Assembly: GCA_000934665.2 (NCBI GenBank)
Contig: JYFJ02003042.1
Span: forward strand, 1-47,024
Direction: 5' to 3'
Length of the DNA stretch: 47,024 bases
Source of the DNA: Catajapyx aquilonaris
Taxonomy: Eukaryota
In this document: positions 1-20,600 of the stretch, in pieces
Layout of the letters: the number at the start of each line of letters is the position of its first letter
Position numbering within the stretch: the stretch's first letter is position 1
Made by a program: the position numbers and the translations under genes
Notes under the pieces: model-generated
Database searches by the model: none
Told to the model about the DNA's origin: nothing
Seen by the model: only the letters and a program-made list of their open reading frames with translations

Positions 1-3000
1 AGACTCCTCCAAAACCTTCAGTATATGAGTGTACTGCTCCTTGATAGGGTAATCCCATACACGGAATTTCGATTGCTCCGAACTGCTCAAAGTCAGGGTT
101 TTCCACATCCTGAAAATCGCAGCATAATCTTTTGCAAATTTGTAAAATAATTAGACCACGTAATCAGAAAGCGACATTGATGTAAACATAATCAGTTTTC
201 CGATTCCATGGATTAGTTTTATGATGCCACTCACTGGTATAGCTCCTCTTCAGCATGAGCCATGTTAATGAAGTACTCGTGATACCAAGAGCCGTTGACC
301 ACAGTGTAATTGATTTTGGATTGTCGAGCCAGCTGCTCCAACGACTGGACTGGAGACTATAAAGTACAGTGTTGGACGTTAATCGCGTCGTACTGCTTGC
401 GACATTTTCTGTTGCGGCAGAAGTGCAAATTGAAGTGACCCGTGCGAGTAAGAAGAGGTAGGCATTGAGTGACGTCACCGGCTGGGGGGCAATGAAGAAA
501 AGGCTTGTCCCCAGCCAGTGACGTCACCCAAGGGCTACCATTTCTTACTCGCACGGCTCTATCACTTCGATTTGCACGTCTGCCGCATCAGAAAATGTCG
601 CCAGCATTATGACGGAATTAATGCCCAGCACTGTACGTGTTACACTCAGAATTTGTCAAATTTAAGAGGCCTAACCTGCATTCTCTCGACAGTCAGAAAG
701 GCAGCCAAGTTGGCCGTGAACGTGGCCAACATGAGTACCACAAAGAGCCAATAGGCAGCCACCAATGTGCGTCCAGACAGTGCTTTCGGGGCTTCCCCGC
801 CGCCTTGAGGAGTGAACGATGTCAGAGCGAACCAGAAGCTTTCTTTCAATGTGAACTCTCTGCCAGAAAACAGTTATAAAAAGTCAATATCGCCAGCGTC
901 AATATCTATCTATTATGGTATTATAAAGAGAAAAGTTGGTTCGTTTTTCTATTTTATGCACATTTCATACCCGTCTGTTATTATAAAAGGCTAATTTTGT
1001 TCGTTTGTCCATTTCATACCCATCTATTATTATAACAGGCAAATTTTGTTCGTTTGTCAATTTCATGCACATTTTATACCCATTAATAATTATTATTGAA
1101 AGTGTACTTGCCGACATGGATAGGGATAGGCTTCCTTGTTGTTCTGCGCACTGTAAGGAGAGTACTTGTCCAAGAACCAAAGCATGACCCCGGTGACGGT
1201 CAGAGCACCCAGGATGCTCAGCCAGACCTCGAGTTTCAACACGGTCATGAACTTGAACAGCGATGTGTTTCGGATAGGTCGTCGTGTCACTAATTATTTG
1301 TAATTAATCGATTTATATTAATGTACGGGATAAATATATAGACAACTATGCAGCTGACTCACTGATGGTGATTCCGGCTTGTGCGAAGTAAGGTGCGACA
1401 AAATCGATGACCTGTTCTCGCTCTGAGGTCATGGTGAGAGCGGCTATGACGATGTCCGTCTCCTGCCAAAAGCAGATGTATTTATTGCGTGTGCAAACAT
1501 TTGCACGCGTCACACTTTTTCGTCGCCAAACAGTGATGGGCTATTTTGATGCCCTAATAATACTCGTAAATTAACTTTCTTTGCGCATATCCAATCAAAC
1601 ATTTAAGGTCATACTTATATCTATACGTATACGTCTCTCGAAAATTATTAGAGATGTAGGCCTACCCATATATCTCTCTAAATTTTTCGAGAGAATATTT
1701 CACTCAAAAAGGGAGCCATTTCGCAAAATGCTATTTTTTGAGCGAATTTCACTCCAGAAAGATTTACTTTACCTCTAATCGAGTGGAAAATTGCGTGATA
1801 GAAGAGTGAAGTGGGAAACTGCTATTTCAGTTAGTAAAATCTATTTCACTCAATTTGAGTGAAATGAACTAATTCTGAGTGAATTATTTTCACTCTTTAT
1901 TGAGTGATTTTCACTCATTGAGTGGGAGTCAAAAGTCAAATCAAGCAGGCGAAAGAGTGAAAATCACTCAAATCGAGTGGAAAAACATTCGAAAATTATT
2001 TTTAAGAGTAATTTTAATGTCTATGGCCATACTTTTTATACAGATTCTAGGATCTGAAAGGGCCTAAAATGCGTTACAAGTTTATATTGACAATGTCCGT
2101 GCATAACATGTTATCGTTTCTTAAGAGCGACATAAAAGCTGTTACATGTGCGCAATTAATCTTCATGCATTGTCATATTTCGTCCTTGGCCTTGTCGATG
2201 TAAGGAATAATTAAAATGTAAGGCGGGCTCTTAATATCCGTTGGGACAATTTCTCAGGCCAACACCGGCTCATTAACACACGTCGAGTTTGAACACCCCA
2301 AAGACGCATTAACATTGCGTGTTACTTTCATATATTGACAAAGGCTAATTTTTTGGGGGTTATTGACGTAACAAGAAAATTGGCACACTTACCCCTTTCT
2401 CTAGATCGCCAACCAGACCATTCCACTCGCCATTTACTTTTTCGCCATACTGTTTGTCCGCGGGTATGACCATTTCGTAGTCGAAGCTGAGTCGTTTTGC
2501 CAACTCGGTCAGAAGGTCGATGCAGTAGCCTTCCCATACGTCTTCTCCGTCAATCCTTTTGGCTACGTACGCCCAAGGACGTATCTGTAACAGAATTTAA
2601 TATTTTGGGGGGCGAAATTCAGAAGCATACTATAGTGAACCCCTTGCCAAAATTTTGCATTTAACTATAATATCAGCATTATATGAGTCGACTCAGCTAA
2701 CTGAGGCGTGATTGGCCTCCTCAGATGATGTGATGAGATGAGATTTGTATGCAATATTACTTTCGCATAGGCTGCACCTTCCCATGGATTAGGCGGCAAT
2801 GTTACCTGGCAACAATGTGCTTACTCCCATTGTTGATGAAGACGGTTGTTGTTGTTTTTTTCAGCGAAACTGTTCTAATTCAGCAAGAAAAGGTGTATGA
2901 TGTCGATCTGCATGGTGTGAGAACGGTGTGGCCATAAGAAAGCTCGGATACTGTCACTCATAGCTACAGGTAACAACACAGTATGTCTTGAAAAAAAAAC

Positions 3001-6000
3001 GTAGATATATTTCGGTGGACTTTAGCCCCCCCCCACGAAAATTAAATATTTCTACATATTTCATGAATCTACTTGACAAGATGAGTTGAATGATATACCA
3101 GTATTCATAGGGTACGGAAACTAAAATTATTTGAAAACTTAAAGTACACGAATTTTTCTCCTCGACAATGCATAATATTTCCAGATGCCTACTCTCTTGA
3201 AGCATGTCGACTGCAACTCGTTTGTTAGTGGTGGTCTACCATCTGATCATCGCCTTCCTTCTGGCAGTCCTCATTATGTCAGTGACCTGGGAATACGGAA
3301 CTAAAAGAGCGCTCATCCCCTTCAATAAGCTAGAACAAGACTTCGAAATCTCCTTCTTCATCGGGCTCTCCTCATACGAAATACGCGGTGCAGGGTAAGA
3401 AGTCTTCGGATGAAGGTGTGTTCACAAGTATGGCAAGATTTGGAACACACCTTTAATTAGCTATTACTGATCATTACACCCTGCTGAATGTTTTCGCTCA
3501 GGCATGACAAGCTGCAGGATAAGGACGTGGAGTTCATCAAGACGTTTGTGTGGCGAGACGATCCTCTGGAGGGTAACGTTGGCGAAAAGGACAAGAGCCT
3601 GAAGCAGTATATGGAAACGGTCAAAGAGGGATTTCCTCTGCCGGTTGTATGGATCCAAGAGTACCTCATGCTCAACAGCGAGGGTGTCCAGCACACTAGG
3701 CACTATCGGACGGCCGGTTTCTACGGACACTTATTGCTGACCTTGGCCATGATGATTTGGATCACCTCCTTCTTCATCTCGTTTGGCATGGTGGCCATGT
3801 ACGCCAAGTGGGTGGCCATGACCGGCCTGATGATGTTGGGCAGCTCCACGATCTTCATGCTGAACCGGAACTCCTATTCGGAGATACGGGTACCGCTGTA
3901 CGGACCCGACACCAAGGATGTTCATCTGGAACTGGGCTACGGTTATCCCTTTTACCTGTCCATGTACCTTGGAGCCTTCATTGCCATCTGCGGGGTGGTC
4001 CTAAACTCCTTGGTGAAGCAGAAGCAGACGCAGATCAACCAGTTCTTCAATGTCAAGACCTCGGTTCTGTACACTGTCGAGAAGAAGGCGATCCGAGGTG
4101 CAAAAGAGGAGGATGATGTAGGTGCAATATAGCAGCTATATGTATCTAAATGTTGTGAGGGTTGACCTCCTCGGGTCATCCCCCTGACCCCGCAAGGTCC
4201 ACGAGTATAGCATTCAGGGGACATCCACTCCTTATGGATATCCCCTTGGATGCCCAAATGTCACAAGAATAGGATGCCCGAATCCAGGAGACATCCAGGT
4301 TGGATCCAGGTTGGATGTCTCCTGGATATCGGATTGACACACGGCTTTTCCGACACCTTTTCCTGTGACATTTTGCTAGTCTGTTCTTCGCAGACGTTGC
4401 ACAAAGGTTCGATGAATATCATTTTTACGTCTCACAGAGTCGCAAGTTGAAGAAGAAGGAACCCCAGACGGAACACAAAGCGGATACAGCAGAGGTGGAG
4501 TTGGATGATGAGCAAGAGTGGGAAAAGGCGCCGCCTGTGGCAATGGCCGCCGCGTCTCCGGAGGACGTCCTGTATGAGCCGGAGGAGAGTGTGCCTCAGC
4601 CGTCCGAACAGCCAGAGTTGGTGGATCAGATAATGCCACAGCCTTCGTCTCCGGTACCTCGAAGGTACTCGGTGGAGCTCAACGTCCCCAGCATCAAATT
4701 CGATCTGATTGAGGATGAACCGGAAGACGAGTTGCCTCCTCCGCCTCCTCCTCCTCCGCTCAAGGAAAAGAAGAAGCATCACAAGAAGGAGGAGGACGAG
4801 CCCATGTGCGGATGGTGCGGGTTGATGTGGTGCTAGAACCTTTTATAGCGATGCAACAGGACGCATAACAGGGTTTGAAGTGTTGCGTCTTTTTATGAGT
4901 TGTGCCGCAATTTGTTACGTGTTCATGGATCCGAATTTTTGCTGAATAAACTGGATGTTTAAGGTACATCATATACCTACAGAATTTTCTATGTGCCACC
5001 TTGTCGTGATGGAGGGACTGAGTTTCTCCCGTGACCCCAAGAGCTATGCAGGGGGTAGCTTCGTCTACTGGCAGGGCCACCCAAGTGGGATAGGAGACAC
5101 TGTGCCAAATTTTGGCAACGGGTTCACTGTACTATAGTATGCTGCTTTATAACCTTGACCTGGTCACTTCGATTTGCACTTCTGCCGCATCAGAAATGTC
5201 GGAAGCAGTATGACGCGATTAATGTACAACACTGTACCATTTATATGTGAATGTACTTGCCTCATTAGTTCCGACCCTGAATTTCCGTCGGATTTGATAG
5301 TCGTCAATTCCAGGCGAGTAGATGATATTGGTGTCGTATGTCCAGTTGCCCAGACGGTATTCGGTACGGTTTGCAGTTAGAGATATTTCCATGAAAGCAT
5401 TGTACGACAGCCTTGTGTGGTTTTTGTCCCACCAGAATCCAGGACGACTCTGTGTTGTCTGGAAGGAAAACACGGAATTGCAGTATTGTAGGGGGAAAAA
5501 AATGCAGGGTTAAAACATTAAGAGCTGACCTCTTCAATTTCCTTGTGAAAGTTGTGAGTATTCTGGTCAAACGACGCGCCGCTTATGTTGACATCGCACG
5601 AAGCGGTTTTCAATGAGAAGCTGATCCCTCGGCCTATCATTTTGTCTACAACTTCGGCCAGAAAGTTGGCAGAGCTGGCTGAAAATTCCTCTACTCTCTG
5701 AAAGAATGTTAAGAAAACTCATATTGTTACATTCAGTGTGAACGTAACATCATGAGTGTTAATGCATACATTAAAGTTGCAGTCGCAATCCTTTGGAGAC
5801 GTGAGAAGTATTTGACAGCACAACTGTCTAACCATTTTGACCATAGTGATATTTGCTTTGACTCGTGGAAGTCGGAACTGATGGTGTCGGAAATCGGTAA
5901 ATACCAAGATCCATCTGTAGTTTTTTCCGGCCATGTTGCTAGTGACAGCCTGCGGAAAACAGGGTGTTTCAGAACCAACCGTGCATTTTATAGTGAGGCT

Positions 6001-7768
6001 TGCACTTACAAAGTTAAATAACTCTGTAACGCTGGGAGTGTCACCAAAAATGACATGGAAGCTGGGCGATGGTCGAAGCTGCTTCAGATTGTCAGTCTTG
6101 TTTGGATTCAGTCGATTCAGAAGCAGGACTCGAATGACAGAGTTGCCTATCAGGTAGCGCAAGCTCTGATCTAGTTCTGAAGGAAAATTTCATATTATTG
6201 TTGTCGATTTGTGGTAAACTATAATGACGAACCTATTTCGTCCTGGAATATTAGTGCTGCGTCCAAAGCCCCCCTTTTGACGAGATACTGGTCAGCTACC
6301 ATCACATATGGTCGAATAGAAGTTTCTATGCGAACATAGGGCACACCGTTTTTCTTGGCAATTTCGCGGACTTTGTACCATCCGGCCCAGGTCAGGTCAA
6401 CCACCACGGAAACACCGCGGTTTAGGACCTGACATGCTGAAACCCCCATGTTAGTTATAGTCTATATTGTTTAGGAATGTTATAGTCTGATGGATTTACC
6501 TGAGTTTAAGTTTTCGTCTTCGTTGTCTTCGTTGAACAGGACCAAGTCCTGGTCCAGTTTAGACTTTGTGTTGCTTTGAGCTGCGGTCAGTCCTCGACCA
6601 AATGCGGTGGGAATATTTGGTTGCTGGCTTTCCACAATGGTCACTAAATAGTGGATCAAATTTACAGAACCAAGTAGTGTGAGGGTCAATAAATTTGCAC
6701 AAGAAGCAGGTCTTTTGTTCCATGATATTAATTAATTACGGAATCCACAACGATTGTCTTTAATGACCAAGGGTACTGCAGAATTGACTTTTTGCTACAG
6801 TGAAAAAGACATTCATGAATGTATAATCAGCAACATCCATTTTCAATTTACAATAAATATGTTGCTATTTTCCACTGGGCAGCATAACTTCTCTATTTTT
6901 ATGACAATTAATTTTTTTGGCACGTAACTGGTTAAGTTATAAGTTTGGGCTAGAGATAATTATTTTAGTGAATAAAAAAAATGTTGTCCCACCCCTACAG
7001 TGTACGTCTAAACTCTGTTCGTTGCTGGGAGTCATTCAATTTGCATCCTCATAATTGAAATGCCGAGTTCCCCAAGTTTTCGAGTCGATAAACTCTCATT
7101 TCATACTTTGGAAGGAGTGGAAAAAAAGTGCACAGGGATGGGGAAAATCCTAAAGCAAAGAGAACTAGGAGAGACTAACGATCCATTTTACATTTTCGTA
7201 GAAAAACGACCTCTGACCAGGCTTAATATCACAGTCATGTATTATGCAGTATTGACTCTTTTGAGATAATGTGTAACTTTCTGGAGGTCATCGTTTGCAA
7301 ATGTACTTGCATAATATCTTAGTAATTTTTTGTACTGGTTATTACAGTGTGTACTTTATGCGATATTTTTACATACATGTAGGCTAGTGCACTAAAATCA
7401 CTAAATAATAGTTTAATGTCAGCTGTGCATCCCGCTGACGGATTGATTATATTCCAAATTATAACTTAATTTTTTTCAATTGCAATTTTTAAGAAAAGTA
7501 AGTTTATAATCTGTCTCATCCCTACTTTTTCCGGCTTTCAAGTATAGTGTACCTACACGTCACACTTCACAAAGAGCAAATTGCAGACATGAGTTTGTCA
7601 TTGAAACATTTTTATTGCTTGCAAAACACTCGTCACTTGCCCTGCTCAGACGTATGCATATCACGCAATCAAGTCATGCAACATGTACTTACTGAACCTA
7701 ATGGTGTCCTGTCCACACACTCCAACACACATGATCAGTAAGCATCCAAAGAGGATCAGCCTCACCAT
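1..7768 (-). CDS. Ir8a: Ionotropic receptor co-receptor IR8a-like, paralog A (3' end runs off the window)
   Basis: Frame-consistent exons: 7693-7768 (signal peptide MVRLILFGCLLIMCVGVCG/QDTIRF), 6500-6643, 6233-6436, 6010-6176, 5770-5949, 5530-5697, 5261-5458, 2393-2584, 1363-1462, 1112-1289, 676-859, 235-356, <1-109. About 674 codons lie in the window. IR8a hallmarks: N-terminal domain present; WEGYCIDLL; LTMTSEREQVIDFVAPYF; SLFKFMTVLKLEVWLSI; YPYPCREFTLKESFWFALTSFTPQGGGEAPKALSGRTLVAAYWLFVVLMLATFTANLAAFLTVERMQSPVQSLEQLARQSKINY; FRVWDYPIKEQYTHIL. Two introns are modelled with GC donors (required at 5260, preferred at 1111). Confidence 0.93.
367..633. mobile_element. MITE (Tc1/mariner-type, non-autonomous, fold-back) in an intron of IR8a paralog A
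   Basis: TA-CAGTGTTGGAC...CCCAGCACTG-TA. The two halves are imperfect reverse complements over almost the whole length, and there is no coding capacity. Related copies lie at 38188-38395 and 5163-5234. Confidence 0.85.
933..1095. repeat. Imperfect intronic tandem repeat (~45-60 bp unit, ~3 copies)
   Basis: Recurring ttttgttcgttt...atttcatacc(c/g)...attattataa..ggc units. Confidence 0.6.
1674..2010. repeat. Degenerate repeat or fold-back element rich in TTCACTC/GAGTGAA motifs
   Basis: Many TTCACTC and GAGTG(A/G)A motifs in both orientations, with loosely inverted ends (ctctaaatttttcga ... tcgaaaattatttttaagag). Confidence 0.45.
2801..2813. promoter_or_regulatory. RFX X-box-like motif
   Basis: GTTACC-T-GGCAAC matches GYYRYY-N1-3-RRNRAC. 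It lies about 390 bp upstream of the nested DUOXA-like ATG. Motif match only. Confidence 0.4.
3204..4836 (+). CDS. DUOXA: Dual oxidase maturation factor (DUOXA/NIP)-like membrane protein, divergent, nested antisense in an IR8a intron
   Basis: Exons 3204-3394 (GG|gtaaga), 3502-4117 (ctcag|G; GAT|gtaggt) and 4438-4836 (ctcacag|AGT) give about 401 aa, with AATAAA at 4945-4950. DUOXA-family pattern: TM-TWEYG...FFIGL...FVW...KEGFPLPVVWIQEYLMLNSEG...RHYRTAGFYGHLLL..W...TGLMML...LELGYGYPFYLSMYLG. An upstream exon encoding the usual first TM may exist but was not found. Confidence 0.8.
4282..4327. repeat. 16-bp perfect inverted repeat within a GGATRYCC-rich element in intron 2 of the DUOXA-like gene
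   Basis: atccaggagacatcca-N14-tggatgtctcctggat. The surrounding 4200-4330 carries repeated ggatgcc/ggatatcc/ggacatcc motifs. Confidence 0.65.
5163..5234. mobile_element. Partial (one-arm) copy of the CAGTG MITE
   Basis: tcacttcgatttgcacttctgccgcatcagaaatgtcggaagcagtatgacgcgattaatgtacaacactg-TA closely matches the right arm of 367-633 and 38188-38395. Confidence 0.8.
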
Positions 7769-9167
7769 AATTACACGTCTGTCTGGTGACACCCAATCTT
7801 GAGTACTGAGAGCATCGTGGTCCTTTTTCCTTGTGTGGGTGTGTCTGTGTGTGTATCCTGCTTCTGGGTGAGAGATATATGGAGTCGATACAGCCAACAC
7901 GAGATTCATGTAATATTCAGTGCGTCGCTATATGATGGGCGGGAGGGAGGAGTGTATGTTAGTGGAAAGAGTTCGCTGGCAGGGTTGAATAAGTAAACGA
8001 CCATGTCTGAAAGGTACATAAGGGGGACGGAATAAATGGCGGTGCCGATAATGAGTGAAAGGTTTTCTTGGGACGTTGCTATGGGGCAAATACTGCCTGT
8101 CAATCATTCGGATGGATGCGACGGAATTATCGGAAGCTTGTGCGGGTTTTTGACGTGGGAGATGATTTTGCGACATGTTGCGACGGGTTGCGACATGTCG
8201 AGTTGGATGATGACATGTTGATATCGGTTTTTTTAAATGAAATCTCTGTAAGCTATGGGTCTAATTAAACTGGAGGTGGCATTATGCAGGTTTATTGCAC
8301 AATGGTTTATAACAACAATGATTTTCATACAATACGGGATGGGTAATTAAAATAGCACGTATTATCCAGAGCACATTTGTCAAGCAGTTTGACATGTGAA
8401 GAGATTGACAGCAAATTAGTGTCTCCACTTGTGGCATTTCAAAATAATAGAAAAATTAATGTAGTAGGGGCCTACAGCAAGAAATTATATTTTTCCTCCA
8501 CACTGTTAAGAAATATGTGCATAAATTGACAGCATGTTTCTAATCCAAAATATGATTTTTGTGGAAATTATATTGCTGCCTATCCCTTCATGCATTTCAC
8601 ATTACATCGACAGTACATGATTTTGGCTTCATTATTCTGTGTGAAAATAAAGTACTAGTGAAAGCAATGTATTACACGTAAGCAGCATGTGATGTTCAGT
8701 ATTACACATAGCACATAATTATGTGGCACGCATAAGGCAGACAGTATGTTGTTGACTTTCTGATTCAGTACTAGTTTGAAGGCCTCACATTTTGTCACAT
8801 TAAAGGAAAATCTTCGATTATCTTGCTAATAACACTGAAAGCTTATTCTCTACTTTATATTCATTTATAAAATAGAACGAAAATAGAGTCTGTGTTGTTG
8901 TTTTTATATTAAAATAAACTGTGGAACATTCATAACACATATCACATACATCAGAAAGGCACGTGCACAAGGAAATAAATACACCTTTCTGTCAGACAAA
9001 GAGAGCATGTAACTTCACAATATTTTCTCTTTAGCAAAAATAATAATAATAATTGAACTCCCCAATTTTCAATGTACACCACCAACGTCCTTCATTTCAT
9101 CCCCTGGCAACATGAGCACTACACAAAACCTTCAGGCGGATTTAATTCAAAATTTACTGAGAGTTTC

Positions 9168-12100
9168 TTACAAGTCTTCTAGACCCAGGAAATGCTTGTG
9201 CCAGGAGGTGCCTTGAAAGTCTTGTCGTCTTTGGTCCAGGCCCCTTCCTCCTGCCCCACCTGCTGCGGCTCCTCTATTCTGTATCATTTCGTGCAGACGG
9301 GCCACTGTAGATGCCACTTGTTGGTTCATGACTGCATCGGCATGAACCTTGTTGCGACTCTTATGCCTCTTGGACAACTGGATCTCGATCACTAGGGCAA
9401 CCATGGCCACCGCCAAACCAATCACTGTTATGATGAACACGCCTCCTGCGAAAGAAAGAATGGAATAAAATAGAAGCATACATGAATATTAAATTGTTAA
9501 TTAAATTAATATTACATAACTATAAGTTTTGCTATAATAAATTTGGATGAAAAATATTAGGTACGGTTGTGTACTTGTGTCTATTTAAATGAAAGGCAAG
9601 TTTCCATATGTGCATAAAAGGCAGACTCTAATTACACAATGTACGCATATGAAAATGAAGTACATGGAAGAACAAATATTTGCTTTGAATTCATATTCAG
9701 GTAAAATAATTAATCAATGCTTTATGTCAGGCGCATAGATATATAATGCCCACGTATGTAACAGCTCTCAACAGTGATTACGTTTCGCTTTCCCTTACTC
9801 TATTTTGCAATAAAAATAATTAATAACGTGTCTGCAAATAAATTGATGGACTGTGCTGAGTAATATTGTGTGGGAGTGCAAATACCTGAAATTCATCAAA
9901 TTGTGGGAATGAAGATGTATTCAGCTGCACACAAACGTTGAAACCAATTAACTGGGAGTTTAATGTGATGGATGGGGGATTTGAAGTGTATTGACATGGC
10001 TGTTTGTGTATACAGGCAATGTTTACGGTACTTCCCAGACATGCTCCACAGCATTTAATTGCTATTGATATTTAGGACTTACGTTGTCAGCTAGATAATT
10101 ATATGCATTACCCAGAGAATTGATTTTTTTTACCTGTAAGATGATCATAATTATTTTTATTCTTCAATATAACCAGCAGTTGTAATGCAATTCGAAAATA
10201 TTATTGCTGCGCCAACACATAATTTGTGTTCACTTAGCACTATTGAACCAGCTGTCCACAACATGATTAATCGATACAGTTTATTTAAGTACCGCGACAA
10301 TCAATTTAAGCTAGAGGAACATATGTGCACTCTTCCAGCACCCGCAAAACTTCAAAAGAGGACGGAAAACTCTTTATTTAGGCGCAAAGTAACCCGAAAT
10401 TAGCAAAGTCTGAGCCGGAATTAATGGAAAAGTTTTCATGATATGCACGTCGGATGTTAAAGGCTTGAAAGTATAATGAAGGCTGATTATTATTCAGACG
10501 GACTTACCCAAACTTTGCAGAGTAATGCCGTCGCTGCCTTTGGCGCACTGATTCCTCAAAGTGATGTTCCAGTATTTGGATTTGAGTAACTCAAAGTACC
10601 GCTCTTTTTGTAGCTCCAGTATCCTGAAAAGCATTTAGAGAATTCACTTACATTGGAATGCAATTATATTGAGAGTGCGGAAACTTACTGGTGACTGATG
10701 TTTTGCTGGAGAAAACTGCCTTGCTGAACCGCAATTGCGTATGGTTGTTCCGCAAACGATTTGCCAACTTCGGTCAGATTGCAATTTTGAATCAGGTCGT
10801 AACTCAACAAGGCTGTGTCGTCAATGAAGGCGAAGAATCCATTCTCGTCGTCTATGACCTTTAGACACGAAAATGTCAGGAACAAAAAATTACAGCCGTT
10901 TACAGCATAACAAAATCGGAGAACTTACCCGTTTAATACCTTCCTGGTATGACTGTACTGGATTTGAAGCCTGAATTGTTTCTAAGATTCCTTTGTAACT
11001 CTCTTTAATGGGATAGTCCCATACTCGATAAAGTCCTTCATCTACAGCTGTAGTGAGGGTCAGTTCTTTCCACATCCTGCGACACAATAACATTCATGAT
11101 TATTAGTCCACCCAGCGGGCTCCTATCCCCAAAAGGCATACCTGAATAGCTCATCTTCGGCGTGGGCCATGTTGATAAAGTACTTGTGAGTCCAGGAATT
11201 GTTGACAACCGAATAGTTGATCTTTGACTGTCTGGAGAGCTCCTCTAGAGACTGAACCGTCGTTTGCATTCTCTCGACGGTCAGAAAGGCGGCCAGATTG
11301 GCTGTGAAAGTGGCCAGCATGAGGACCACAAAGAGCCAATAGGCAGCCACCAAAGTGCGTCCTGAAAGAGCTTTCGGGACTTCCCCGCCTCCCTGGGGAG
11401 TGAAGGATGTCAGAGCGAACCAGAAGCTTTCTTTCAAGTTGAATCGTCTGGCTCCAGGGAACTTTTCCTCGTTGTTTTGGGCGCTAAATGGCGAGTATGT
11501 GTCCAGTACGCACAGGAGGATTGCTGTGACCACCACTGCCGCTAATATGATCATCCAAACCTCGATTTTCAATACGGTCATGAACTTGAACAAAGACTCA
11601 TTCTTTACTGGCTGCCGTATGACTGCAGGAAAGAAAGATCAATATTATTTGCATTACTGTATGATGCGCCAAACAATAGTTAGATTTAAAAAATGTTTCA
11701 ACGCACAGTTTTACGACTAAAGGTCGGTCAACTCAAATTAAGACAAATTAAGACAGAAGATTTTCAATTACAAAATGCAAATAGGGGATGTCCCTAATCT
11801 ACACTGTAATATGCACTAAAATGATTACCGATTGATATTCCAGACTTGGCGAAATAAGGTGCCACATAATCGATCACTTCGTCACGTTCGGCTGTCATGG
11901 TGAGGTCGGCTATGACGATGTCTAGATCCTGAAAAGTTACAGGTTGTGCCATCAGTAACCAGAATATGGAATGTAATGAGGCACTATTTTACTCGTAATT
12001 TATGTAATTACCCCTCTTGCAAGCTTCCCAACTAATCCGGTCCAACTTCCGTCTGATCCTCTGACTCCCAATGACTCGTTGGGATCAGCCACATCCAAAT

Positions 12101-14729
12101 CGTAGTCGAAATCCATAAGTTCAGAGAGTCTCTGAAGAAATTCGTAGCAATATCCTATCCAGCTTCCATTAGCGTGTTTCATTAGCCATGGAGAATGCTG
12201 TGAAGCAATATATTTGATACACCCTGTACAGTATGTTCAAAATAATCCAAAAATATCGCATATTTTTTTATAGGCGTTTGGGACTCTCATTGGATGCTTT
12301 CTAAATAATTTTACTCAAATTGTAATTGTTTGTATGACTTCCCTTAGCTTAGAGTAAGATGTATAATTTGTATACTTAATTTTTATGCAACTCACCTGAG
12401 CCAAACCGACTCGAAACAGCCTCCTGACCTTCGGTGGGTCAACCTCGATGTTCAGTCCTTTGTCCGGCGTCCAACTGCCAATCTTCTGTTTAGTTTTATT
12501 GACAAAGATGCTGATGTCGAAAGATATTCGAGGCAACAATGTCTCCATTGCCTCATCATACTTGTAGTCATGACCGTTGCTGGTGGTGACAACCTGCCAG
12601 ACACAGTCACAACAGTAAGAGATTTGTGACCTGTTGCTCACTTAATTGCCATTCAGTCAGGACTAACCTCTGTAAATTTCTTATTGAAAGTAGCCTGCAT
12701 ATCACTGGCTCCATCTTCTCCTTCCTCCTCTTGACATTTGTCCACACTGGTCGCCAGTTCAATTCCACTCTGCTGTCTTAGTTCCTGAGTAGCCTGCGCT
12801 AAAAGGATTGCCGAATTCTCCACAAACTCTTCTATCACCTGCGCATACAATTATTAAATTAATATCTTCCCTTGTAATAATTTGAGAAAATTGTCTCCAA
12901 CCTCTCCTCTGCATGTGCAGATTTGTTGTGTCTTGTACTGGCAGCAGTTTTGCTTGGACATCTCTATCAGTGTCGCATAGTCTGGAATTGTTGCTCTGCC
13001 CAATTCAGCATATCTGAAGTCTGTGAACACTAGTGTCCACGTTCCAGGTCGTGGCTTGATTACATCAGCGTTGCCACTCATCTGAAATTTACAGAACATG
13101 TCGGTTAACTTTCTGGTATGTCCATGAAGTACAGTATGTAATTACTCCAGAATAAATGGGGTGCACACCTGATGCAAAATGAGTCCGGTTAGCTCCGTGT
13201 CAGCCACCGTGACGTAAAACGACGGGGGTGGTCGCATCTGCTTCAAAACTTCTATCGACGGTGTGTTTAGTTGGTGTAGGAGCAAAAATCGCAGCGATGA
13301 TCGTCCCACGAGGTAGTACAGGCTTTGGTTCTTTTCTGGAGGCAATAAAACTATTCTGTCAATTTTTCGCTTTTCATCCTTGCATGATGCAACCCAATAA
13401 TGCATTTTTTTTAATTAGCTCCATTTGAAAGAAATCTGGATAGTGTAGGGTGGAATAACCAGTAGGACAATCCCTATTAAGTTGGCCACAAATTTTGCAA
13501 TTTTTATTTTAATTTAAGTGCAATTTAAATTTTGTTTACCCAGACACCCCAGCTGACTTACGTGCATCTGTTTCAAATATGAAGGTGGCGTCTAGTGCGT
13601 CTCGTATTTGCAAATATTCGTCAGCGACTTGTACGAAGGGTCTGACTGAGGCGTCGACGTGCAGGTACAGTATCCCTTGCTTTCGAGCCATGTCTCGAGC
13701 GAATTTGTATCCTCCTGCTGTCAGATCCACTATTCCATTCACACCCTGCGCCAAAGCCTGACAACCTGTAATTATTACACAATAAAAAAATTAACACACA
13801 CTTTGTATACTATGACATTCAAGACATGAAGTTGCATAGGTCTCCATCGGAGTATGTTAACAATGAAGCAATTATGTGCTAAGTACTTAGTACCAATTAT
13901 GTGCCAATACTTGGTACTTTCGTAGCTATAAAAGTGCCCAATCAGATTTCGATCAGTTTCTTTTACGAGGTGTGTTATATGCCAATATAACGTCACTACA
14001 GCTTTGCGTGAGACATGTTACAGGTATAGCCACACCGCCTGGTGTTGCCACAGGTTTTTTTTGATTAAATATGTACAGCAGGAACGAGGAACCGGGAAAT
14101 TATTTAATATCACGTGTCTCTTCCTTGTACAGAATTCCGAGAACACGTCCACAATGAAACGCTTAAAATCGGTGATATCTGTGCAAAATTTTGGATTAAT
14201 GCTGTCCATAGATTGTAATTATTGTAAGTTCAGGCTTACGTGTTCACACCTGGGGCACACTGGTAGATCCTGATGTGTAAGCGGGAGGCGCATGCGTGAC
14301 TGGAGCCGCTACAGTCACGCATGCGCCTCCCGCTTACACATCAGGATGTGACTAATCCATCATCAGCTCTGTTCCCTAACACATTCATATCATCTAGTAT
14401 TGAATTTTTAATTGTAAAAAAAATTACTAATTCAAATTAGGCACTAACCTGAGCTCCTAGAGTCTTCATTCAATCTCCGTGCGTACGTGGTAGGTATCTG
14501 ATCAAACCTTTCATTATGTCGTGTCTCCGCCACCTTCAAACCGCGTCCGAACGCAGCCTTGATGTTGTCCTGTTCCGCATCAAACACCGTCCCTGAAACA
14601 CCCCAAACACTTTTGACCTCTGACCTATCGAACCATCCACAATTAAAAAAAAAATCACTCACAAAGTCGTGTCGTCGCCATTCCAAATGTCACCCAACAA
14701 GCTGCGAGGATGACCAAACTCGCACTCAT
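9168..14729 (-). CDS. Ir8a: Ionotropic receptor co-receptor IR8a-like, paralog B (complete, ~869 aa)
   Basis: 14 GT-AG, frame-consistent exons: 14663-14729 (signal peptide MSASLVILAACWVTFGMA), 14449-14592, 13562-13765, 13169-13335, 12902-13081, 12668-12838, 12396-12593, 12012-12197, 11829-11928, 11142-11622, 10929-11076, 10689-10858, 10508-10623, 9168-9445 (2610 nt). Motifs: LKESFWFALTSFTPQGGGEVPK, ATFTANLAAFLTVERMQ, YRVWDYPIKE, NCNLTEVGKSFAEQPYAIAVQQGS, ILELQKERYFELLKSKYWN, GITLQSLGGVFI. Several exon lengths (144, 204, 167, 180, 198, 100) equal those of paralog A. Confidence 0.93.
14267..14347. repeat. Perfect 36-bp inverted repeat (81-nt hairpin) in intron 2 of IR8a paralog B
   Basis: atcctgatgtgtaagcgggaggcgcatgcgtgactg-gagccgcta-cagtcacgcatgcgcctcccgcttacacatcaggat. 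Confidence 0.9.
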
Positions 14730-15391
14730 GATGTGACAACCCCTTTTTTTCACGCCATGTTGGATCTATCTTAGATCAATCTATTGGGGGTGTACAAACC
14801 TTTGAAAAAAGAAAAAAAAATCCAATGTCCGGCACTTGAGGCCGCAAGAAGGACACTGGAAAGTTGTGTTTGTTTTTTCTCGAATCCAAGCGCGGAACTA
14901 ATGACGTTCGAGGCTTCTGTTGTTAGGTGTGGTAGCATTTCGTGCTAACCGGTCATAATAAATAGAACGGTAGACAGGTCTATGTGGGCGATAGACATTG
15001 GCAACGGCATGGATTAATGAGTCCCAGAGGGTATTACCTATAGAGGTTCTTATAATATGCATCGAATGTGTTGCACAACATGCTTGAGTTTTTATTGATA
15101 TGCACAAAATTTTACACAATTGATGATGGAAATATTTGAAGTACAAAAAACCGGTTCTATTATTGACGTATTGGTCGATAACTGGAGTATTTTTTATAAA
15201 TACTTGTTTTTACTAATTTTTGCGTCAAAATTGTGGAAGAACAAGTCTCGTCCGATTTTAGTTCATTTAAAAAAAATAATCAAAAATCGGTCGAGTTTTT
15301 CACTCAAAATTTTTTAGAGTGTAGAATTCCGCCGGCTTTAAGTCTTGACATGACCTGGAAGATGTCACCACACAGTGTGACATTTCTGGAT

Positions 15392-17553
15392 TTAGAAAAA
15401 TGCACCTCCGCCGCCACTTCCGCTTCCGCCTCCGCTTCCTCCTCCACTTCCGCCGTGATGACCATGGTGACCGTGGTGTCCGTGATGACCCTTCTTGTAT
15501 CCATGACCCTTCTTGTAGCCGTGGTGACCGTGATCCTGATGACCTTTCTTTCCATACTTGTTGTGGTGTCCGTGGAACCCTTTTTTGCCGTGGTGACCGT
15601 GGTGACCTTTGTGACCCTTGTGGTGATGTCCGGCGTCGTAGTGACCATTGTGCCCGTGGTGCTTTTGATGTCCGCCAGCCTTGAATTTTTAAAACGGTTA
15701 ATAATATTGTAGGTAATGGGTATCAAATAGGTATGAAATGTACCTTGTGATGTCCTCCGTGGTATTTCTTTCCTTCGTGATCGTGATGGTGTTTCGCGTG
15801 ATGCCCTTGCGTACCGTGGTATCCGTCGTCGTGATGATCGTCGTAGAACTTGGCTGATTTCGAGTATTCGTCCTTGTGGTAAGTGTTTTTGTATCCCTGT
15901 AACATCATTACTCTTATTAGTCTCCATTACTCATTGCCAGCACCTTATCGACATATTTGGCCTCCAAATTAAGTCATATAAGAGGGCCTTCAGCTATACT
16001 CACCGTGACGTGGTGTCCCTTCTTGTGATGACCTTTCTTTCCGTACTTGTGGGCATGAGCGGCCTTTGACCCGTGGTTATGGTCACCATGATGATGGTCA
16101 CCGTGGTGTTGATGGTTTTGATGATGACCCTTGTCGCCGTAGTACCCCTTCTTGTGTCCACCCTTGTGCTGACCACCGTCGTACTTGTGATGCCCACCTT
16201 CGTCGTGGTGCTCGTCGTGACCCTTGTGACCATGCTCATCGTGACCTCCATGGAAGTGGTCACCGTGGTGGTCATCGTGACCAAACTCGCTCTGCTGACC
16301 TGAGCTATGCCCACCATACCCACCACCGTACCCTCCGCCATAGTGACCTGGGGTCAATAATTTATATATTAATAATAAACAATTAAATGAATAAATAATA
16401 TAAATAAAAAAGTTTTTATCGATGATACTAAACAGAGTATCGAACTCGGTGGGTTGACTGACCTGTGGCTGAAGGTTGGAGGTCCCTGCCCTTTGACCTG
16501 ATGACCTCGACCTCAGCCTGGTTTGCCGCGACTTCAGGCTCAGGGTCGATTTCTTCCTTGAATTCGGCCGACGATTCCACCATTGTGATTTCCGTCGCTT
16601 CCAGCACCAGCGGGGATATTTCAATGTCGAAAGTGTCGGAGGTCATGTTTTCTGCCGACACCAGGGCAACAGCCTGTAACGGACGGGGGAAAACCAGTTT
16701 CGTTTTTTTTTTCTTCAATTCGACTCGCTTGGAAGGTTTAACAGGACAGTGTCATGTGTCATATGTCACAAAGAGATTCGGAAAAGCGTGGCTCCACACA
16801 ACCGTTAGAATCGTATAAAGGTGAAGGCTATTTTTGTTTCAAATAATTTAAAATCAGCCAGATTCTAACAAATGTGGACCCTATTGTTATGTATTCAGCA
16901 TTGTTAGTCGTACTGACATCTGGTCACAATATCAGAATTAAAAGTGTAATTATTAATAATTAAAGAACACGCTATTATAAGACTGAATACATTCAATTGC
17001 ATTGCATAAATATTGTAAGCCAGAATATTAATATTAATGATATAAAAATGTAAAATATCATAATGTGCTTGAAATTGAATTTACTTCACATTAATCATTA
17101 GTCACATTGTTGATACTAAACCAACTATAATTAAAGGCATGTGTACTATTAAATGACTGAAAACATTCCATTGAAGACCGTCAGTTGTTATCAAGAATAT
17201 TAAAATTAATAATATAAGAACAAGCCATGTAAAATATCATTTGGTTTAAATTAAATTGAATTGAATTTACTTTACATTAGTCACATTGTTGATAATAATT
17301 AATCCAACTATGGCACATACTAAAGACTGAAAACATTCCATTGAAGTACATCAATTGTTAGCCAGAACATTAAAATTCAAAATATAGAAATACATCATGT
17401 ATATAATTTACTATAATTTACTTTAAAATGCAATAGGGGTATGTAATTTATGAAATGGGGGCCAAAATTATGAATCAATATATTTAAAATAATAATAATG
17501 ATCGTATGATTATGGACGACAATCCTCACCCAAAGGCACAGAAACAGTCTCAT
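15392..17553 (-). CDS. Secreted histidine/glycine-rich protein (arthropod DUF4779-like), ~339 aa
   Basis: Exons 17530-17553, 16463-16673, 16004-16347, 15744-15896, 15392-15679 (1020 nt, all GT-AG). Signal peptide MRLFLCLWAVALVSA, then an acidic segment, DLQPSAT, GYGGGYGG, an H/G/K-rich body with KKGHHKKGHHVTGYKNTYHKDEYSKSAKFYDD (a motif I associate with DUF4779 proteins), and a GS-rich tail. Confidence 0.88.
16981..17390. repeat. AT-rich tandem repeat, ~172-bp unit, ~2.4 copies, in intron 1 of the His-rich gene
   Basis: gactgaa(t/a)acattc(c/a)attg recurs at 16981, 17155 and 17325, with shared atgtaaaatatcat, ttgaatttactt and cattagtcacattgttgata blocks. Confidence 0.8.
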
Positions 17554-17653
17554 CCTGTAGTGGTGTCCAACACTGTTAATCACATGTAGACCACTGTACC
17601 GCCACATCCACCGAACTCGAGCCGACTCATGACACCGTCATCAACACTTGTCC

Positions 17654-17661
17654 TTTTTATA
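17654..17661 (-). promoter_or_regulatory. TATA box of the His-rich gene
   Basis: TATAAAAA on the minus strand, about 105 nt upstream of ATG 17553, in a non-AT-rich context. Confidence 0.6.
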
Positions 17662-20600
17662 CGACCTGCGACGGTTACGACCAACCAACTGAAGCAACGT
17701 TTTTTTTTCTTCTTTCAGTCCAAAGCCGTATTTTTCTTTCACCATGAAACGGTAGGCAAGACAAGACTCCTATCTGGCCATGGCCTGAGAAAATTGTTGG
17801 GCGGGATTTAGGCGTGGTTAGAAGGACCCGATTGTTCACGGGGTAGAAGATGTAGTGACGTTTGGCGACATCGACGTAGTTCCGACACTGCTTTAATAAC
17901 GACAAAAAAAATATTTGAATCGGTTCGGTTGGCAAATGGTGAGGACAAACCTATAACTCTCACCGCAATTATATCTTCCCATTTTTTTTTGTTTCGAACT
18001 ATCATGGCTGAAAAATTGTCCCTTTTTTGGTGCCTTATTGCATCACAAAAGAACAAGTTTTTTTGGGGGAGGAAGGTCCATTGTGTCCTATTTTTTATGT
18101 AGAGTTGTAGCGATTTGAAAAGGAAAGTGAATTGACCCGCCCCAGAGGATTTTGGGCAAGAAAAAAAAAATCGGCGGAAAATCTTACATCCGTCAGTTGC
18201 ATGGATGCAATTAGTTGAGGTCAAGTAGTGATATCCTGTTATTTGTTGGATTGAAGGATATTAATTATTTTTTTGGAATAAAGGTGACAAAGGTGTCCGA
18301 CCTGGTCATATCCTAGCCTCAGAAACACTTGGCATTGGAAATATCGAACGCCTTCTAAGGAAACTCGTGCTGTGGCAAAATGGACAGATGACACACATGA
18401 ATAATTAAATCCGTCCAATATGATGATCGAAGCTTATAAATCCTGCCCTTGAAGAGTACACACCAGTAATTACTACCTCGACTTTTAGTGCTGTTAACAC
18501 CCTGGCATTGTTCCCATTTTAGATCGACCCATATCTATGCAAGCGTGAAAAAGACATCCTGTTAAGAACTAGCTGAACATAGAATCGGAAGCCCAGTCGA
18601 GTGTGGTTTTTCTGAGAATGAAAATTGGATTTCATCCGGTTGCCTGAATGGTTGAGGTGTGAATGAAAACATTTTTTTGGGTGTCCATTCATCAGGCATT
18701 GTCCCTCCATCACATATGCGAGGCCGGAATAATTCGGCGTTAAAATTGTGGAATTATTGTCTTTTATCCTAGGTGGATTTCCATATCACGCCCAATGTTT
18801 CATTAGGGTCTCGTCCGGCTTTTTGGGATTGGCATTGAATGAAGGGTGAAGCGAAAATTGGGTGGCCTTATAAAATGGGTTTGGTTTGTGCACAATTAGA
18901 GCGGATATTCAGTGTGGGAAATTTTGTCTATAGAGTGAAAATAATGATCTGTGCAAATGATGGGGGATTAATAATATGGTTCTAATGAGAGGATTTTTCA
19001 TGGTCCTACCTGGTTACCTTTATGCATAGCAAATGGTGTATAACTTCCAAGTGAAATCAGTGCATCTCATAAAGTATCGACCCATTATATAACTAAGCAA
19101 TGTTATTATAGCATTTGTGGCTACTGCATTACTGTAACTTTATGACCGCAAATATAGACTGTTATGACGCACGCAGTTTTCAAATTAAATTTTTTTTTGT
19201 GTACAATTTACTTCGTTTAAAAATCAGAGGGGCTATTTATACCTGTAACTCATTATGCACTGTATGCAAGCTTACAGAGTACTATAATACAAATATTATT
19301 TGTTAGAAACTTCATCACAAGCCTGATAGCTGATTCGGTTCAGATAAGCCGAAGGAGAATGAATTTTAATTAAAAACTTGGAGAAAATATTTTCAAACCC
19401 CCCTTTTTTTACTCCACTCTTACGAAAACTTTTATTCGCAACCAACTATTGCGAAAAGCCTAGAAAGCAGCTCCCTAATTGCCCCATATTTTTCCTTCAA
19501 AAATTTTTTGGAGCTAAGAAGAAGACACCTCGTACCATTGTCCCGCCGCCTTATTACACCAAATGTGCACGACACCGAACTTATGCGTTTCATCAGACTG
19601 GGGGGGTTACGTTAATGAACAAATGGAGCATGAAAAAGGAAGCATTGTAATCCGTCATGCGCAAAAGGGGTGCTCCCCTGGTGATGTGATTTTCAAAGGA
19701 AGTTGGGATTCATTAAAGGGTCGAGCAGAGACATTAGTGTTCTTATTAGGACCATTAGTGCATGGCTTTGGAAGGGCCTAGAAGTACAGAGAAACTGGTT
19801 CGGAATTGAAAGAGATTTTGGTGCTTGTCACAGAGGGTGGATGGCCGGTCCAGATATCATGCACAGCATCATCATCTCCAAGCAGACAAAACAAAAACAA
19901 ACGAAGAAGCTTTCCCCACACTCTCCCTTTTTTTGAGGAGAAAAAGACACAATTGGACGCACTTCTTGGAAGAAAATTCTGTGGGACGTTACAGTAATCC
20001 TGGGGGGGGGGACTTCATGGGAAACTAGTTTATTATGCCACTTATCTGGTGAGTTGTGCCACCAGTGAGTTTTACATAAGATTTAATTTACGTCGATACA
20101 CTTTTATACCAGTTATCCCTTACCTTCTCATCGCTGTCTTCTATGTACCATACACTATAGTAGTATTAGCCAACCCTTGTACTTCATTCTCCCCACAATC
20201 CCATTTGTTATAACTTGGGCATCAATACTTATCTTCAACATTCTCTTTAAGTCTGTTTTAGAGAAATAACGATGTAGTTCAGGTTCTCAACCTTATCAAC
20301 CTTACCTTAATGAATGCAGTTTTTGGCCACAAAGAATGAGAGGTTTTCAACCCAACTCTCAAAGGTACTTAAGCTCCAGCAGATGGAGGGAAGAGTCCTC
20401 GAATTTTCGAGCCAAATTGCATGACAAACACGTCTTCCTCTTACGTCGTTGTGCCTCTTCTAATTGGGTGCAACAAAGGGTTCCAGTTTCGACTTGTAGA
20501 GAGAGAGAACCTGTCGTTTCTTTATGTATTATTGACAGGCATTGTTGTTTACTGCACAAGTTTACAGAGTGGCAAAGGAAGCTTCTTCAATCATAAATGC

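Follow-up and report, generated by a model that had tools for sequence, protein, structure and literature searches.

The window, by which we mean the whole stretch of 47,024 nucleotides that was analysed, contains two IR8a-like paralogs, A and B. Both gave Pfam matches to Lig_chan and Lig_chan-Glu_bd, consistent with an IR8a-type host, and the 120 homologues listed carry the names IR8a, IR25a or glutamate receptor (~45-59% identity overall). The exons are collinear with those of mosquito and cockroach IR8a, amino-terminal domain included. At its 3' end, paralog A runs beyond the window edge.

Paralog A is interrupted by an intron of 2676 nt (2585-5260, minus strand) with GC-AG borders read from the sequence. 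The exon on its 5' side ends in ...AATGAG at 5261, and the GC donor GCAAGT comes directly after it. At the 3' border the intron closes with ...TTACAG at 2585, and position 2584 opens the following exon. In tblastn, residues 321-390 of cockroach IR8a (P0238) aligned at 5422-5240 and residues 386-457 at 2578-2393, matching both flanking exons, which are therefore consecutive in paralog A. The tblastn-matched part of the upstream exon spans 5261-5422 (minus strand), and the downstream exon (2393-2584, minus strand) encodes part of the ligand-binding S1 region (Pfam Lig_chan-Glu_bd, E 8.2e-16). In paralog B the equivalent intron measures only 198 nt (12198-12395, minus strand) and has GT-AG borders, with the exon ending in ...GCTCAG at 12396 before the donor GTGAGT and the intron ending in ...TCACAG at 12198. 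Thus, the contrast in intron size that had been noted from the letters alone is borne out.

The co-receptor extra loop (CREL) is present in paralog A (141-1) and in paralog B (11078-10920), and neither has a glycosylation sequon there. At the same loop position, IR8a of two Drosophila species, cockroach and lobster reads NAS, NSS or NST. The CREL sequon, N669 in D. melanogaster, is reported to promote ER export of fly IR8a (PMC6472016). The host had been described as a co-receptor devoid of its ER-exit glycan site, and in the loop alignment this is true of both paralogs.

A three-exon DuoxA-family gene nested on the opposite strand

The enlarged intron of paralog A holds a gene on the plus strand, consisting of three exons with GT-AG borders, from an ATG at 3204 to a stop codon ending at 4836. 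Two variants of the exon 2/3 junction are each in frame, giving 401 or 417 codons. Exon 1 (3204-3394) encodes the initiator methionine, one membrane helix equivalent to TM2 of DUOXA and the first part of the extracellular domain, an assignment based on the donor GTAAGA after 3394, weak tblastn matches, an HMM and an alignment. An in-frame TGA at 3198-3200 directly precedes the ATG. Exon 2 (3502-4117, or to 4121) encodes the remainder of a claudin-like extracellular domain and three membrane helices. Exon 3 (4438-4836, or from 4394), as judged by the frame of both variants, composition and indels, encodes an acidic, proline-rich tail and a Cys/Trp-rich C-terminus, and closes with the stop codon TAG. 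The plus-strand poly(A) signal AATAAA at 4945-4950 is the sole AATAAA or ATTAAA within 4836-5260. The gene model, the Pfam match given below and this signal uphold the initial annotation of a three-exon, plus-strand DUOXA-like gene with a poly(A) signal in this intron. In the window copy, another ATG, out of frame, precedes the start codon by 19 nt.

By sequence and modelled fold, the nested gene is a genuine member of the DuoxA family. Exon 2 (205 aa) matched Pfam DuoxA (PF10204, dual oxidase maturation factor) over profile positions 114-278 of 279, with an E value of 1.4e-26 and a score of 93.7 bits against a cut-off of 23.3 bits. Exons 1 and 3 returned no family when searched against Pfam. 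Among PDB sequences, exon 2 matched the DUOXA1 chains 6wxr_B and 7d3e_B (E 8.9e-06). An AF2 model, covering exon 2 only and hence the last three helices and part of the extracellular domain, reached a pLDDT of 81.3 and a pTM of 0.72. With this model, Foldseek placed the DUOXA1 chains 7d3e_B, 6wxr_B and 6wxu_B at ranks 1-3 (probability 1.00, TMq 0.55), and VIA likewise ranked DUOXA1 first (Z 12.7, 11.8 and 11.7; rmsd 3.1-3.2; 145-159 residues aligned). In an alignment with 28 relatives, nine columns are invariant. As in other DUOXAs, the protein keeps the motifs G-x-P-x-P...W..EY and R-x-Y-R-x-A-G and has a long cytosolic tail after the last helix.

The report of no DUOX gene in the window also holds. 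A Pfam scan of 92 stop-to-stop ORFs of at least 85 aa, a threshold below which shorter exons fall, revealed no peroxidase or NADPH-oxidase family in the 47 kb; the only families above or near cut-off were Lig_chan, Lig_chan-Glu_bd, DuoxA and 7tm_1. The head-to-head arrangement of DUOXA and DUOX is known only from vertebrates and is not a defining feature elsewhere. In contrast to vertebrate DUOXA, the nested gene does not adjoin DUOX, but sits inside an IR8a-like gene and has further copies in the genome.

Extreme divergence and missing parts of the nested protein

Over the exon-2 columns, the nested protein is 18.9-25.4% identical to nine named DUOXAs, whereas these share 30.2-57.8% identity among themselves (median 44.5%, 36 pairs). 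Identity to the nested protein is thus 19-25%, against 30-58% between family members from separate phyla, and DUOXAs taken from different phyla resemble one another about twice as closely as they resemble the nested protein. Its end branch, at 2.33 against a median of 0.58, is the longest among 113 rows. Among the 150 matches listed from a search of 1.84 billion representatives, 31 had E <= 1e-10 and none had E <= 1e-30, and the best match among those listed reached 77.8 bits at 29% identity. The host lineage is not fast overall, with one exon of IR8a-A matching mosquito and cockroach IR8a at 93.8% identity (tblastn).

The N-terminal part of DUOXA could not be matched in the window. In tblastn with 150 family members, DUOXA residues 1-62 had no match, while exon 1 weakly matched residues ~63-122. 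An HMM of the DUOXA N-terminus, run over 1563 ORFs, hit exon 1 only (positions 59-95 of 97, E 0.033) and left positions 1-58 unmatched. The start codon of the nested gene aligns with DUOXA TM2. As read from the DNA, the protein thus differs from DUOXA in having no N-terminal peptide or TM1, and in crossing the membrane four times rather than five. An N-terminal helix could still come from an upstream exon that has diverged beyond detection. In human DUOXA1, the N-terminal peptide and TM1 dock on DUOX1, and TM2-5 are claudin-like (PMC7794343). The same source places a DUOXA N-glycosylation sequon between TM2 and TM3, N109 in the human protein. An N-[IV]-T sequon is found in the extracellular domain of 18/18 aligned relatives; the window protein reads S-Y-E-I-R at this position, and no sequon occurs anywhere in its 401 or 417 conceptual residues.

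These findings bear on whether the nested gene is simply the ordinary DUOXA of the species. It would then be the orthologue of fly mol (mol/NIP, which we take to be the invertebrate DUOXA orthologue in flies) and serve DUOX, with one or more first exons overlooked as short, diverged or far upstream, and its nesting would be accidental. The clear Pfam match, the DUOXA1 fold and the nine family-invariant residues are what such a gene would display. Moreover, no annotated proteome is close to this organism, as the IR8a identities to the 120 homologues illustrate, and part of the divergence may therefore reflect lineage distance. However, members of the family are about twice as similar to one another, the nested branch is four times the median, the sequon of all 18 relatives is lost, no N-terminal exon was detected anywhere in the window by tblastn or HMM, and further related copies exist in DNA of the same species. 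We therefore regard an ordinary DUOXA as unlikely. A canonical DUOXA probably lies elsewhere in the genome, the nested gene being an extra paralog.

A repeat-bracketed, probably inserted block and its versions

The nested gene is bracketed by an inverted repeat. The left arm (2621-2659), recognised by pairing, a 22-mer core and depth, lies 36 nt from the intron acceptor; the right arm (5103-5146) was recognised by pairing and the same core. The arms measure 39 and 44 nt, with 36/39 aligned letters pairing and one 5-nt indel, and the 22-mer core occurs at only 2 places in the window (0.00 expected). Contig depth is ~416-498 in the bin 2633-2743, compared to ~91-110 beside it. Outside the arms, 36 + 114 = 150 nt of intron remain, compared to 198 nt for the whole intron in paralog B. 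No target-site duplication was seen at the inverted repeat, and a Pfam scan of the remaining ORFs in the inserted block identified no transposase or other family. A half copy of a hairpin MITE (5162-5237) is located in a very high-copy stretch at 4964-5296, as indicated by repeat families D3, D5, D7 and I2-I5, by a depth of 4,000-21,000 and by loose ends at 5164, 5196 and 5237. Full copies of this MITE are found at 353-647 and 38185-38398.

DNA contigs of the same species contain non-identical versions of the nested gene at a depth of 93-133, while contigs identical to the window have a depth of 34-40. An additional contig of 8.4 kb (depth 27-38) matches only 3772-3933 (138/162 letters) and from 4786 on. 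The deeper non-identical contigs run on into the IR8a exon to the left of the repeat arm, and the arms therefore do not delimit every copy. Instead of paralogs, these contigs could represent alleles, if the sample was pooled, or graph paths that run through the 2633-2728 repeat.

The differences between versions depend on their position. In 12 of 32 indel rows, the indels in exon 3 were -12, -3 (or -2 and -1), +6 and -9, all net multiples of 3 that keep the frame, whereas the indels located in the intron or beyond the stop codon (+2, -3, +3, +6, +1 and -2) do not keep it. Among changed codons, 7/9 were non-synonymous (40 of 108 rows, ending at 3594), a ratio as compatible with relaxed constraint or decay as with adaptive change.

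A duplicate in decay or without function, namely a recently copied gene fragment whose 5' part was lost on insertion and which now drifts, would account for the codon changes in those 40 of 108 rows, 7 of them non-synonymous and 2 synonymous. It would also agree with the extreme branch length, with the loss of the N-terminal peptide, TM1 and the conserved glycan site, and with the out-of-frame ATG 19 nt before the start. Against such drift stand 401-417 open codons over three exons with usable splice sites, the frame-keeping of the exon-3 indels seen compared to those outside the coding sequence, the confident DUOXA1-like model and a poly(A) signal in place. Decay of this kind appears distinctly unlikely to us.

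Relation of the nested gene to its IR8a host

In Drosophila, 9.5% of genes are reported to be nested (PMC3814207, PMC5174743). Nested genes there are typically short, young duplicates that were inserted into long introns and then underwent a burst of rapid evolution (PMC5174743). The gene described here resembles these young nested duplicates in its opposite-strand placement, short length, fast protein evolution and insertion into an intron (PMC3814207, PMC5174743). Unlike them, it is bracketed by an inverted repeat, and its host intron seems to owe its length to the insert, in view of the 150 nt outside the arms.

The initial annotation went further and proposed a co-regulated module, with the nested protein working together with its host. 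The protein would act as a trafficking accessory or auxiliary subunit for IR8a-type receptors, or belong to a reactive-oxygen module in ciliated sensory neurons, with nesting providing the co-regulation. Of this proposal the antisense-nested DuoxA gene stands, but co-regulation and the trafficking role find no support. With GTHNYYATRRNAAC, which we take to be the X-box consensus, 9 sites with at most one mismatch were counted in the window against 10.6 expected, and none fell within 2585-5260; the X-box said to lie upstream is thus no more than chance would supply. In addition, the base rate in Drosophila runs against co-regulation, with nested opposite-strand pairs reported to be less co-expressed than neighbours (PMC3814207; PMC5174743).

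A partnership with the host could draw on the lack, in both IR8a-like paralogs, of the CREL sequon reported to promote ER export in the fly (PMC6472016), although paralog B has no nested gene. Similarly, both elements reported to dock on DUOX1 (PMC7794343) are lost from the nested protein. Furthermore, the DUOXA core has the claudin fold of TARP/GSG1L-type auxiliary subunits of AMPA receptors, which are related to IRs: like TARP gamma-2/stargazin and GSG1L, the nested protein is predicted to cross the membrane with four helices, the first of which is followed by an extracellular beta/alpha domain. After DUOXA1, VIA retrieved TARP gamma-2 (9rn4_G, Z 9.6 over 78 aligned residues) and claudins (Z 7.4-8.2, with claudin-15 at 8.2), values in a range common for helical bundles, for which Z values below ~13 may reflect a common arrangement only. 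Among the Atlas clusters next after DuoxA were Claudin_2 and GSG-1 clusters (scores 0.76-0.80). However, likeness to the claudin fold is common to all DUOXAs, and no sequence relationship of the nested protein to TARP/GSG1L-type subunits was detected. A working partnership with IR8a is, in our estimation, highly improbable.

Scarcely probable at all is a more specific scenario, in which a DUOXA duplicate reduced to a bare claudin-fold tetraspan by loss of the N-terminal peptide and TM1 would have been recruited to serve olfactory receptors of the IR8a type, which have lost their own ER-exit glycan, as a TARP-like auxiliary or ER-export subunit. The two genes would stay linked through its location within IR8a and its joint copying with exons of that gene. 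In the available part of the IR8a literature (PMC6472016), no accessory protein for insect-type ionotropic receptors was found, and the word 'chaperone' has 0 occurrences there. DUOXA is described only as a partner of DUOX in the corresponding parts of PMC7794343 and PMC9421330.

We consider it reasonably probable that the nested gene is a lineage-specific, fast-evolving DUOXA paralog, probably still coding, that was inserted passively and has no functional tie to IR8a. Passive insertion had been named as an alternative from the outset, and it fits better than the module given the base rate for nested genes. The protein would be a four-helix membrane protein, combining the claudin-like DUOXA core (TM2-TM5, TM2 and TM3 being separated by the extracellular domain) with a long, acidic, proline-rich cytosolic tail. 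The extracellular N-terminal peptide with TM1 and the conserved N-glycosylation site would be missing. Because the introns of the nested gene are retained, its arrival would have been by insertion or duplication at the DNA level: a repeat-bracketed block of ~2.5 kb would have landed in a probably short intron of the IR8a-like paralog A. Placement on the opposite strand would follow the usual pattern of young nested duplicates, and the nesting would be passive, creating no functional tie to IR8a. We presume that the gene is expressed, and its 5' end is probably complete. Most likely it would act as a tetraspan of the ER or plasma membrane whose service to DUOX is weakened or altered.

If the gene proves to be a drifting duplicate, the finding would be an ordinary one, another young nested gene. 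As a passively inserted paralog, it cleanly illustrates how a complete gene, introns included, can be carried into a short intron within a repeat-bracketed block. For the DUOXA family, a relative without the parts that touch DUOX1, with an open frame in several copies, would amount to a natural experiment on the claudin-like core alone.

An enlarged intron in an IR8a-like gene and the gene within it

The first 14 kb of the window hold two iGluR-type genes on the minus strand, paralogs A and B, whose exons are collinear with those of mosquito and cockroach IR8a, amino-terminal domain included. Paralog A is truncated by the left edge of the window. One exon of IR8a-A shows 93.8% identity to IR8a of mosquito and of cockroach alike, indicating that the host lineage is not generally fast-evolving. 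In paralog A the upstream exon ends in AATGAG at 5261 and is followed by GCAAGT, and the downstream exon begins at 2584 after TTACAG, defining a GC-AG intron of 2676 nt (2585-5260, minus strand). The equivalent intron of paralog B is a GT-AG intron of 198 nt (12198-12395, minus strand). These borders, read from the sequence, agree exactly with the coordinates of the initial annotation. The donor is GCAAGT in paralog A (5255-5260, minus strand) and GTGAGT in paralog B. Intron number also differs between the paralogs, as the channel-domain region is split by two introns in paralog A (357-675 and 871-1107) and is a single exon of 171 codons in paralog B (11141-11623).

The nested gene lies on the plus strand. 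It starts with an ATG at 3204, immediately preceded by an in-frame TGA, and exon 1 (3204-3394) ends at the donor GTAAGA. Exon 2 (3502 to 4117 or 4121) has alternative 3' ends and exon 3 (4438 or 4394 to 4836) alternative starts; both pairings are in frame, giving a protein of 401 or 417 residues that terminates with a TAG ending at 4836. An AATAAA motif follows at 4945. An out-of-frame ATG is present at 3185-3187, 19 nt upstream of the start codon; a deeper-covered version in DNA contigs lacks it, position 3187 being A rather than G there. Intron 2 contains a near-perfect 56-nt palindrome (4277-4332) without an Rfam match at E ≤ 0.1, and the whole of 2300-5600 likewise returned zero Rfam matches at this threshold. 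No tRNA genes were found in 1-14000. A plus-strand open reading frame at 2737-2937 was rejected as an upstream exon, as its donor phases do not fit the sole possible acceptor before the ATG; it has no Pfam match. Note that a bacterial-type promoter scan carries no meaning for this eukaryotic gene.

Several other features of the window were recorded. At 14267-14347, ~500 nt past the matched exon that lies furthest 5' in paralog B, is a palindrome whose 40-nt arms are 98% complementary and separated by 1 nt. Two minus-strand open frames of 98 and 222 codons (15395-15688 and 15977-16642) encode His/Gly/Lys/Tyr-rich repeats with common internal units, and a single plus-strand frame of 813 codons (26576-29014), in a region of strong AT skew (0.24-0.30), is rich in Pro, Tyr, Asp and Glu and contains two short Cys-containing motifs; Pfam assigned no family to any of the three. 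Two minus-strand exons of a rhodopsin-type G-protein-coupled receptor (32995-33282 and 35137-35418) matched 7tm_1 just below the cut-off (E 3.5e-06 and 1.3e-06), as they are fragments.

A divergent DUOXA-like gene model without the N-terminal segment

Exon 2 matched Pfam DuoxA with E 1.4e-26 and 93.7 bits (cut-off 23.3) over profile positions 114-278 of 279, while exons 1 and 3 matched no Pfam family. A PDB sequence search returned DUOXA1 chains alone (6wxr_B, E 8.9e-06; 7d3e_B, E 2.9e-05). An AlphaFold2 model of exon 2 alone, computed with 28 relatives, reached a pLDDT of 81.3 and a pTM of 0.72. The top three Foldseek matches of this model were DUOXA1 chains (probability 1.00, TMq 0.55), with which VIA-align superposed 145-159 residues (Z 12.7, 11.8 and 11.7; rmsd 3.1-3.2). 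Motifs retained in the window protein are W-E after TM2, G-x-P-x-P...W..EY and R-x-Y-R-x-A-G, and nine columns do not vary among the 29 aligned sequences, window protein included. Based on the Pfam, PDB and model evidence, membership of the DUOXA family by sequence and fold is solid. Together with the exon borders, this confirms the initial observation of a DUOXA-like gene nested antisense in an IR8a intron.

The confirmation extends to family membership; the gene model lacks two defining features, one being the N-terminal peptide together with TM1 and the other the glycan site conserved in the family. In human DUOXA1, residues F8, F10, Y11 and K15 of the extracellular N-terminal peptide are described as touching DUOX1, TM1 as touching preM1 and M1 of DUOX1, and the other four helices and loops as claudin-like, with an ordered glycan at N109 (PMC7794343). 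In contrast to human DUOXA1, the window protein as modelled has neither the peptide nor TM1, and starts at the equivalent of TM2. The extracellular-domain motif N-[IV]-T, present in 18/18 aligned relatives, is absent, and the conceptual protein of 401 or 417 residues contains zero N-x-S/T sequons.

In tblastn with all 150 relatives, exon 1 aligned weakly to residues ~63-122 (E 0.038-0.49), and residues 1-62 found no convincing match. An N-terminal HMM was built from 36 of the 94 full-length matches, chosen for a recognisable loop motif, and run on the 1563 open reading frames of the window. Exon 1 was the only match (positions 59-95 of 97, E 0.033); the next row had E 0.34 and lay on the opposite strand, 6 kb off. 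That the gene is the species' ordinary DUOXA, with a first exon that escaped detection, is an unlikely reading.

The protein is highly divergent. HMMER against 1.84 billion cluster representatives gave at least 150 matches at E ≤ 0.001; among the matches listed, 31 reached E ≤ 1e-10 and none 1e-30, the best scoring 77.8 bits at 29% identity. Six of the ten best clusters are named dual oxidase maturation factor 1-like (scorpion, crab, lobster, feather star, starfish, tick), and the remaining four are unnamed or 'hypothetical protein'. Over the exon 2 columns, nine named DUOXAs from four phyla are 30.2-57.8% identical to one another (median 44.5%, 36 pairs), and the window protein is 18.9-25.4% identical to each of them. 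In a tree of window exon 2 and 112 matches of at least 280 residues (38 shorter matches omitted), the end branch of the window row exceeds all others in length (2.33 vs a median of 0.58). It groups with five unnamed proteins (P0058, P0094, P0100, P0125 and P0130), with SH-aLRT values of 99 for the set of six and 73 for the inner five. We regard this grouping as long-branch attraction, the long branch making the placement unsure. The five were rejected as orthologues for this flagged placement and because the N-terminal peptide, TM1 and the sequon are present in all of them (5/5). A word-based protein search with exon 2 at the 'longer' length setting found nothing; a search with alignment A1 among proteins of 974-2780 residues retrieved one fused shrimp protein of 1087 residues.

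Flanking repeats and other versions in DNA contigs

The nested gene is bracketed by an inverted repeat with arms of 39 and 44 nt (2621-2659 and 5103-5146); the arms pair at 36 of 39 aligned letters and differ by one 5-nt indel. The 22-nt core of the repeat occurs at two sites in the window, both in the arms (0.00 expected). Outside the arms only 36 and 114 nt of intron remain, so that removing the bracketed block of 2526 nt would leave an intron close in length to its short equivalent in paralog B. No target-site duplication was recognised at the arms, and the block's remaining open reading frames and the rest of the intron contain no transposase or other Pfam family. Within the 114 nt beyond the right arm, beside the host donor site, lies a half copy (5162-5237) of a hairpin MITE. 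The ~295-nt element has 86-nt arms (81% complementary) and 51-nt inner arms; full copies are found at 353-647 and 38185-38398, 37.5 kb apart.

The interval 2300-5600 was compared with Logan contigs from a single sample of this species, sequenced in three DNA runs. Depth was 4,000-21,000 over 4964-5296, reaching 14,000-21,000 in the bins at 5186-5296 (half MITE copy) and 4964-5074 (neighbouring repeat). The bin holding the left arm had a depth of about 416-498, compared to about 91-110 alongside. Contigs identical to the window (5208-5600, 3953-4098 and 4903-5080) had a depth of 34-40, and those over 2300-5080, at 93-133, were non-identical, with 49-58 substituted and 34-41 gapped positions per 1683-1908 nt in example contigs. 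An 8.4-kb contig (depth 27-38) matched solely at 3772-3933 (24 of 162 letters differing) and over 55 letters from 4786. One further run (X5) covered 5 of 30 bins, with one 345-nt contig on 3772-3933 (24 differences) plus repeats. We read the non-identical contigs as probable further DUOXA-like copies in the genome; alternatively, they may be allelic variants from pooled individuals or assembly-graph paths that cross the repeat.

Among 12 of the 32 indel rows, exon 3 carried indels of -12, -3 (or -2 and -1), +6 and -9, and intron 2 or the sequence past the stop +2, -3, +3, +6, +1 and -2. Whether the versions are copies, alleles or graph paths, this pattern speaks for a reading frame that appears to be maintained. 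Strong constraint is opposed by the changed codons, 7/9 of which are non-synonymous (40 of 108 substitution rows, ending at 3594). A drifting pseudogene, to which such codon changes might be ascribed, is quite improbable.

Relation of the nested gene to IR8a

The initial annotation proposed a module with an IR8a lacking its ER-exit glycan site, and this lack is borne out: neither paralog A (141-1) nor paralog B (11078-10920), both on the minus strand, has a sequon at the co-receptor extra loop. In the fly, this site is described as promoting ER export of IR8a (PMC6472016). The sequon at this position is NAS in two Drosophila species, NSS in cockroach and NST in lobster; in mosquito, NLT sits a few residues before it. 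After DUOXA1, VIA-align matched the exon 2 model to TARP gamma-2, a calcium-channel gamma subunit and claudins (Z 7.4-9.6, a range for which the tool carries a warning), and in the ESM Atlas the Claudin_2 and GSG-1 clusters rank after DuoxA. Claudin-fold tetraspans are among the auxiliary subunits of AMPA receptors, giving a partnership with IR8a a conceivable mechanism. The missing sequons and the modelled likeness to TARP gamma-2, claudins and GSG-1 would suit such a partner. However, claudin-fold likeness is a property of every DUOXA, here scored within the warned range, and paralog B also lacks the sequon, yet has no nested gene. The X-box consensus does not rise above chance, with nine sites against 10.6 expected and none in the intron. 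A true partnership with IR8a is thus highly improbable.

Literature searches on arthropod DUOXA paralogs and on IR8a with IR8b yielded no DUOXA gene nested in IR8a. In Drosophila, nested structures are reported to hold 9.5% of genes, with faster evolution of nested genes (PMC3814207, PMC5174743), and nesting is described as typically starting with a short, young duplicate that inserts into an intron and then goes through a burst of rapid evolution, in which its expression also diverges (PMC5174743). In conclusion, the nested gene is probably a fast-evolving, N-terminally shortened DUOXA paralog that entered the IR8a intron as part of a block bracketed by a repeat, its nesting being passive. 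It fits the Drosophila pattern of nested duplicates point for point.
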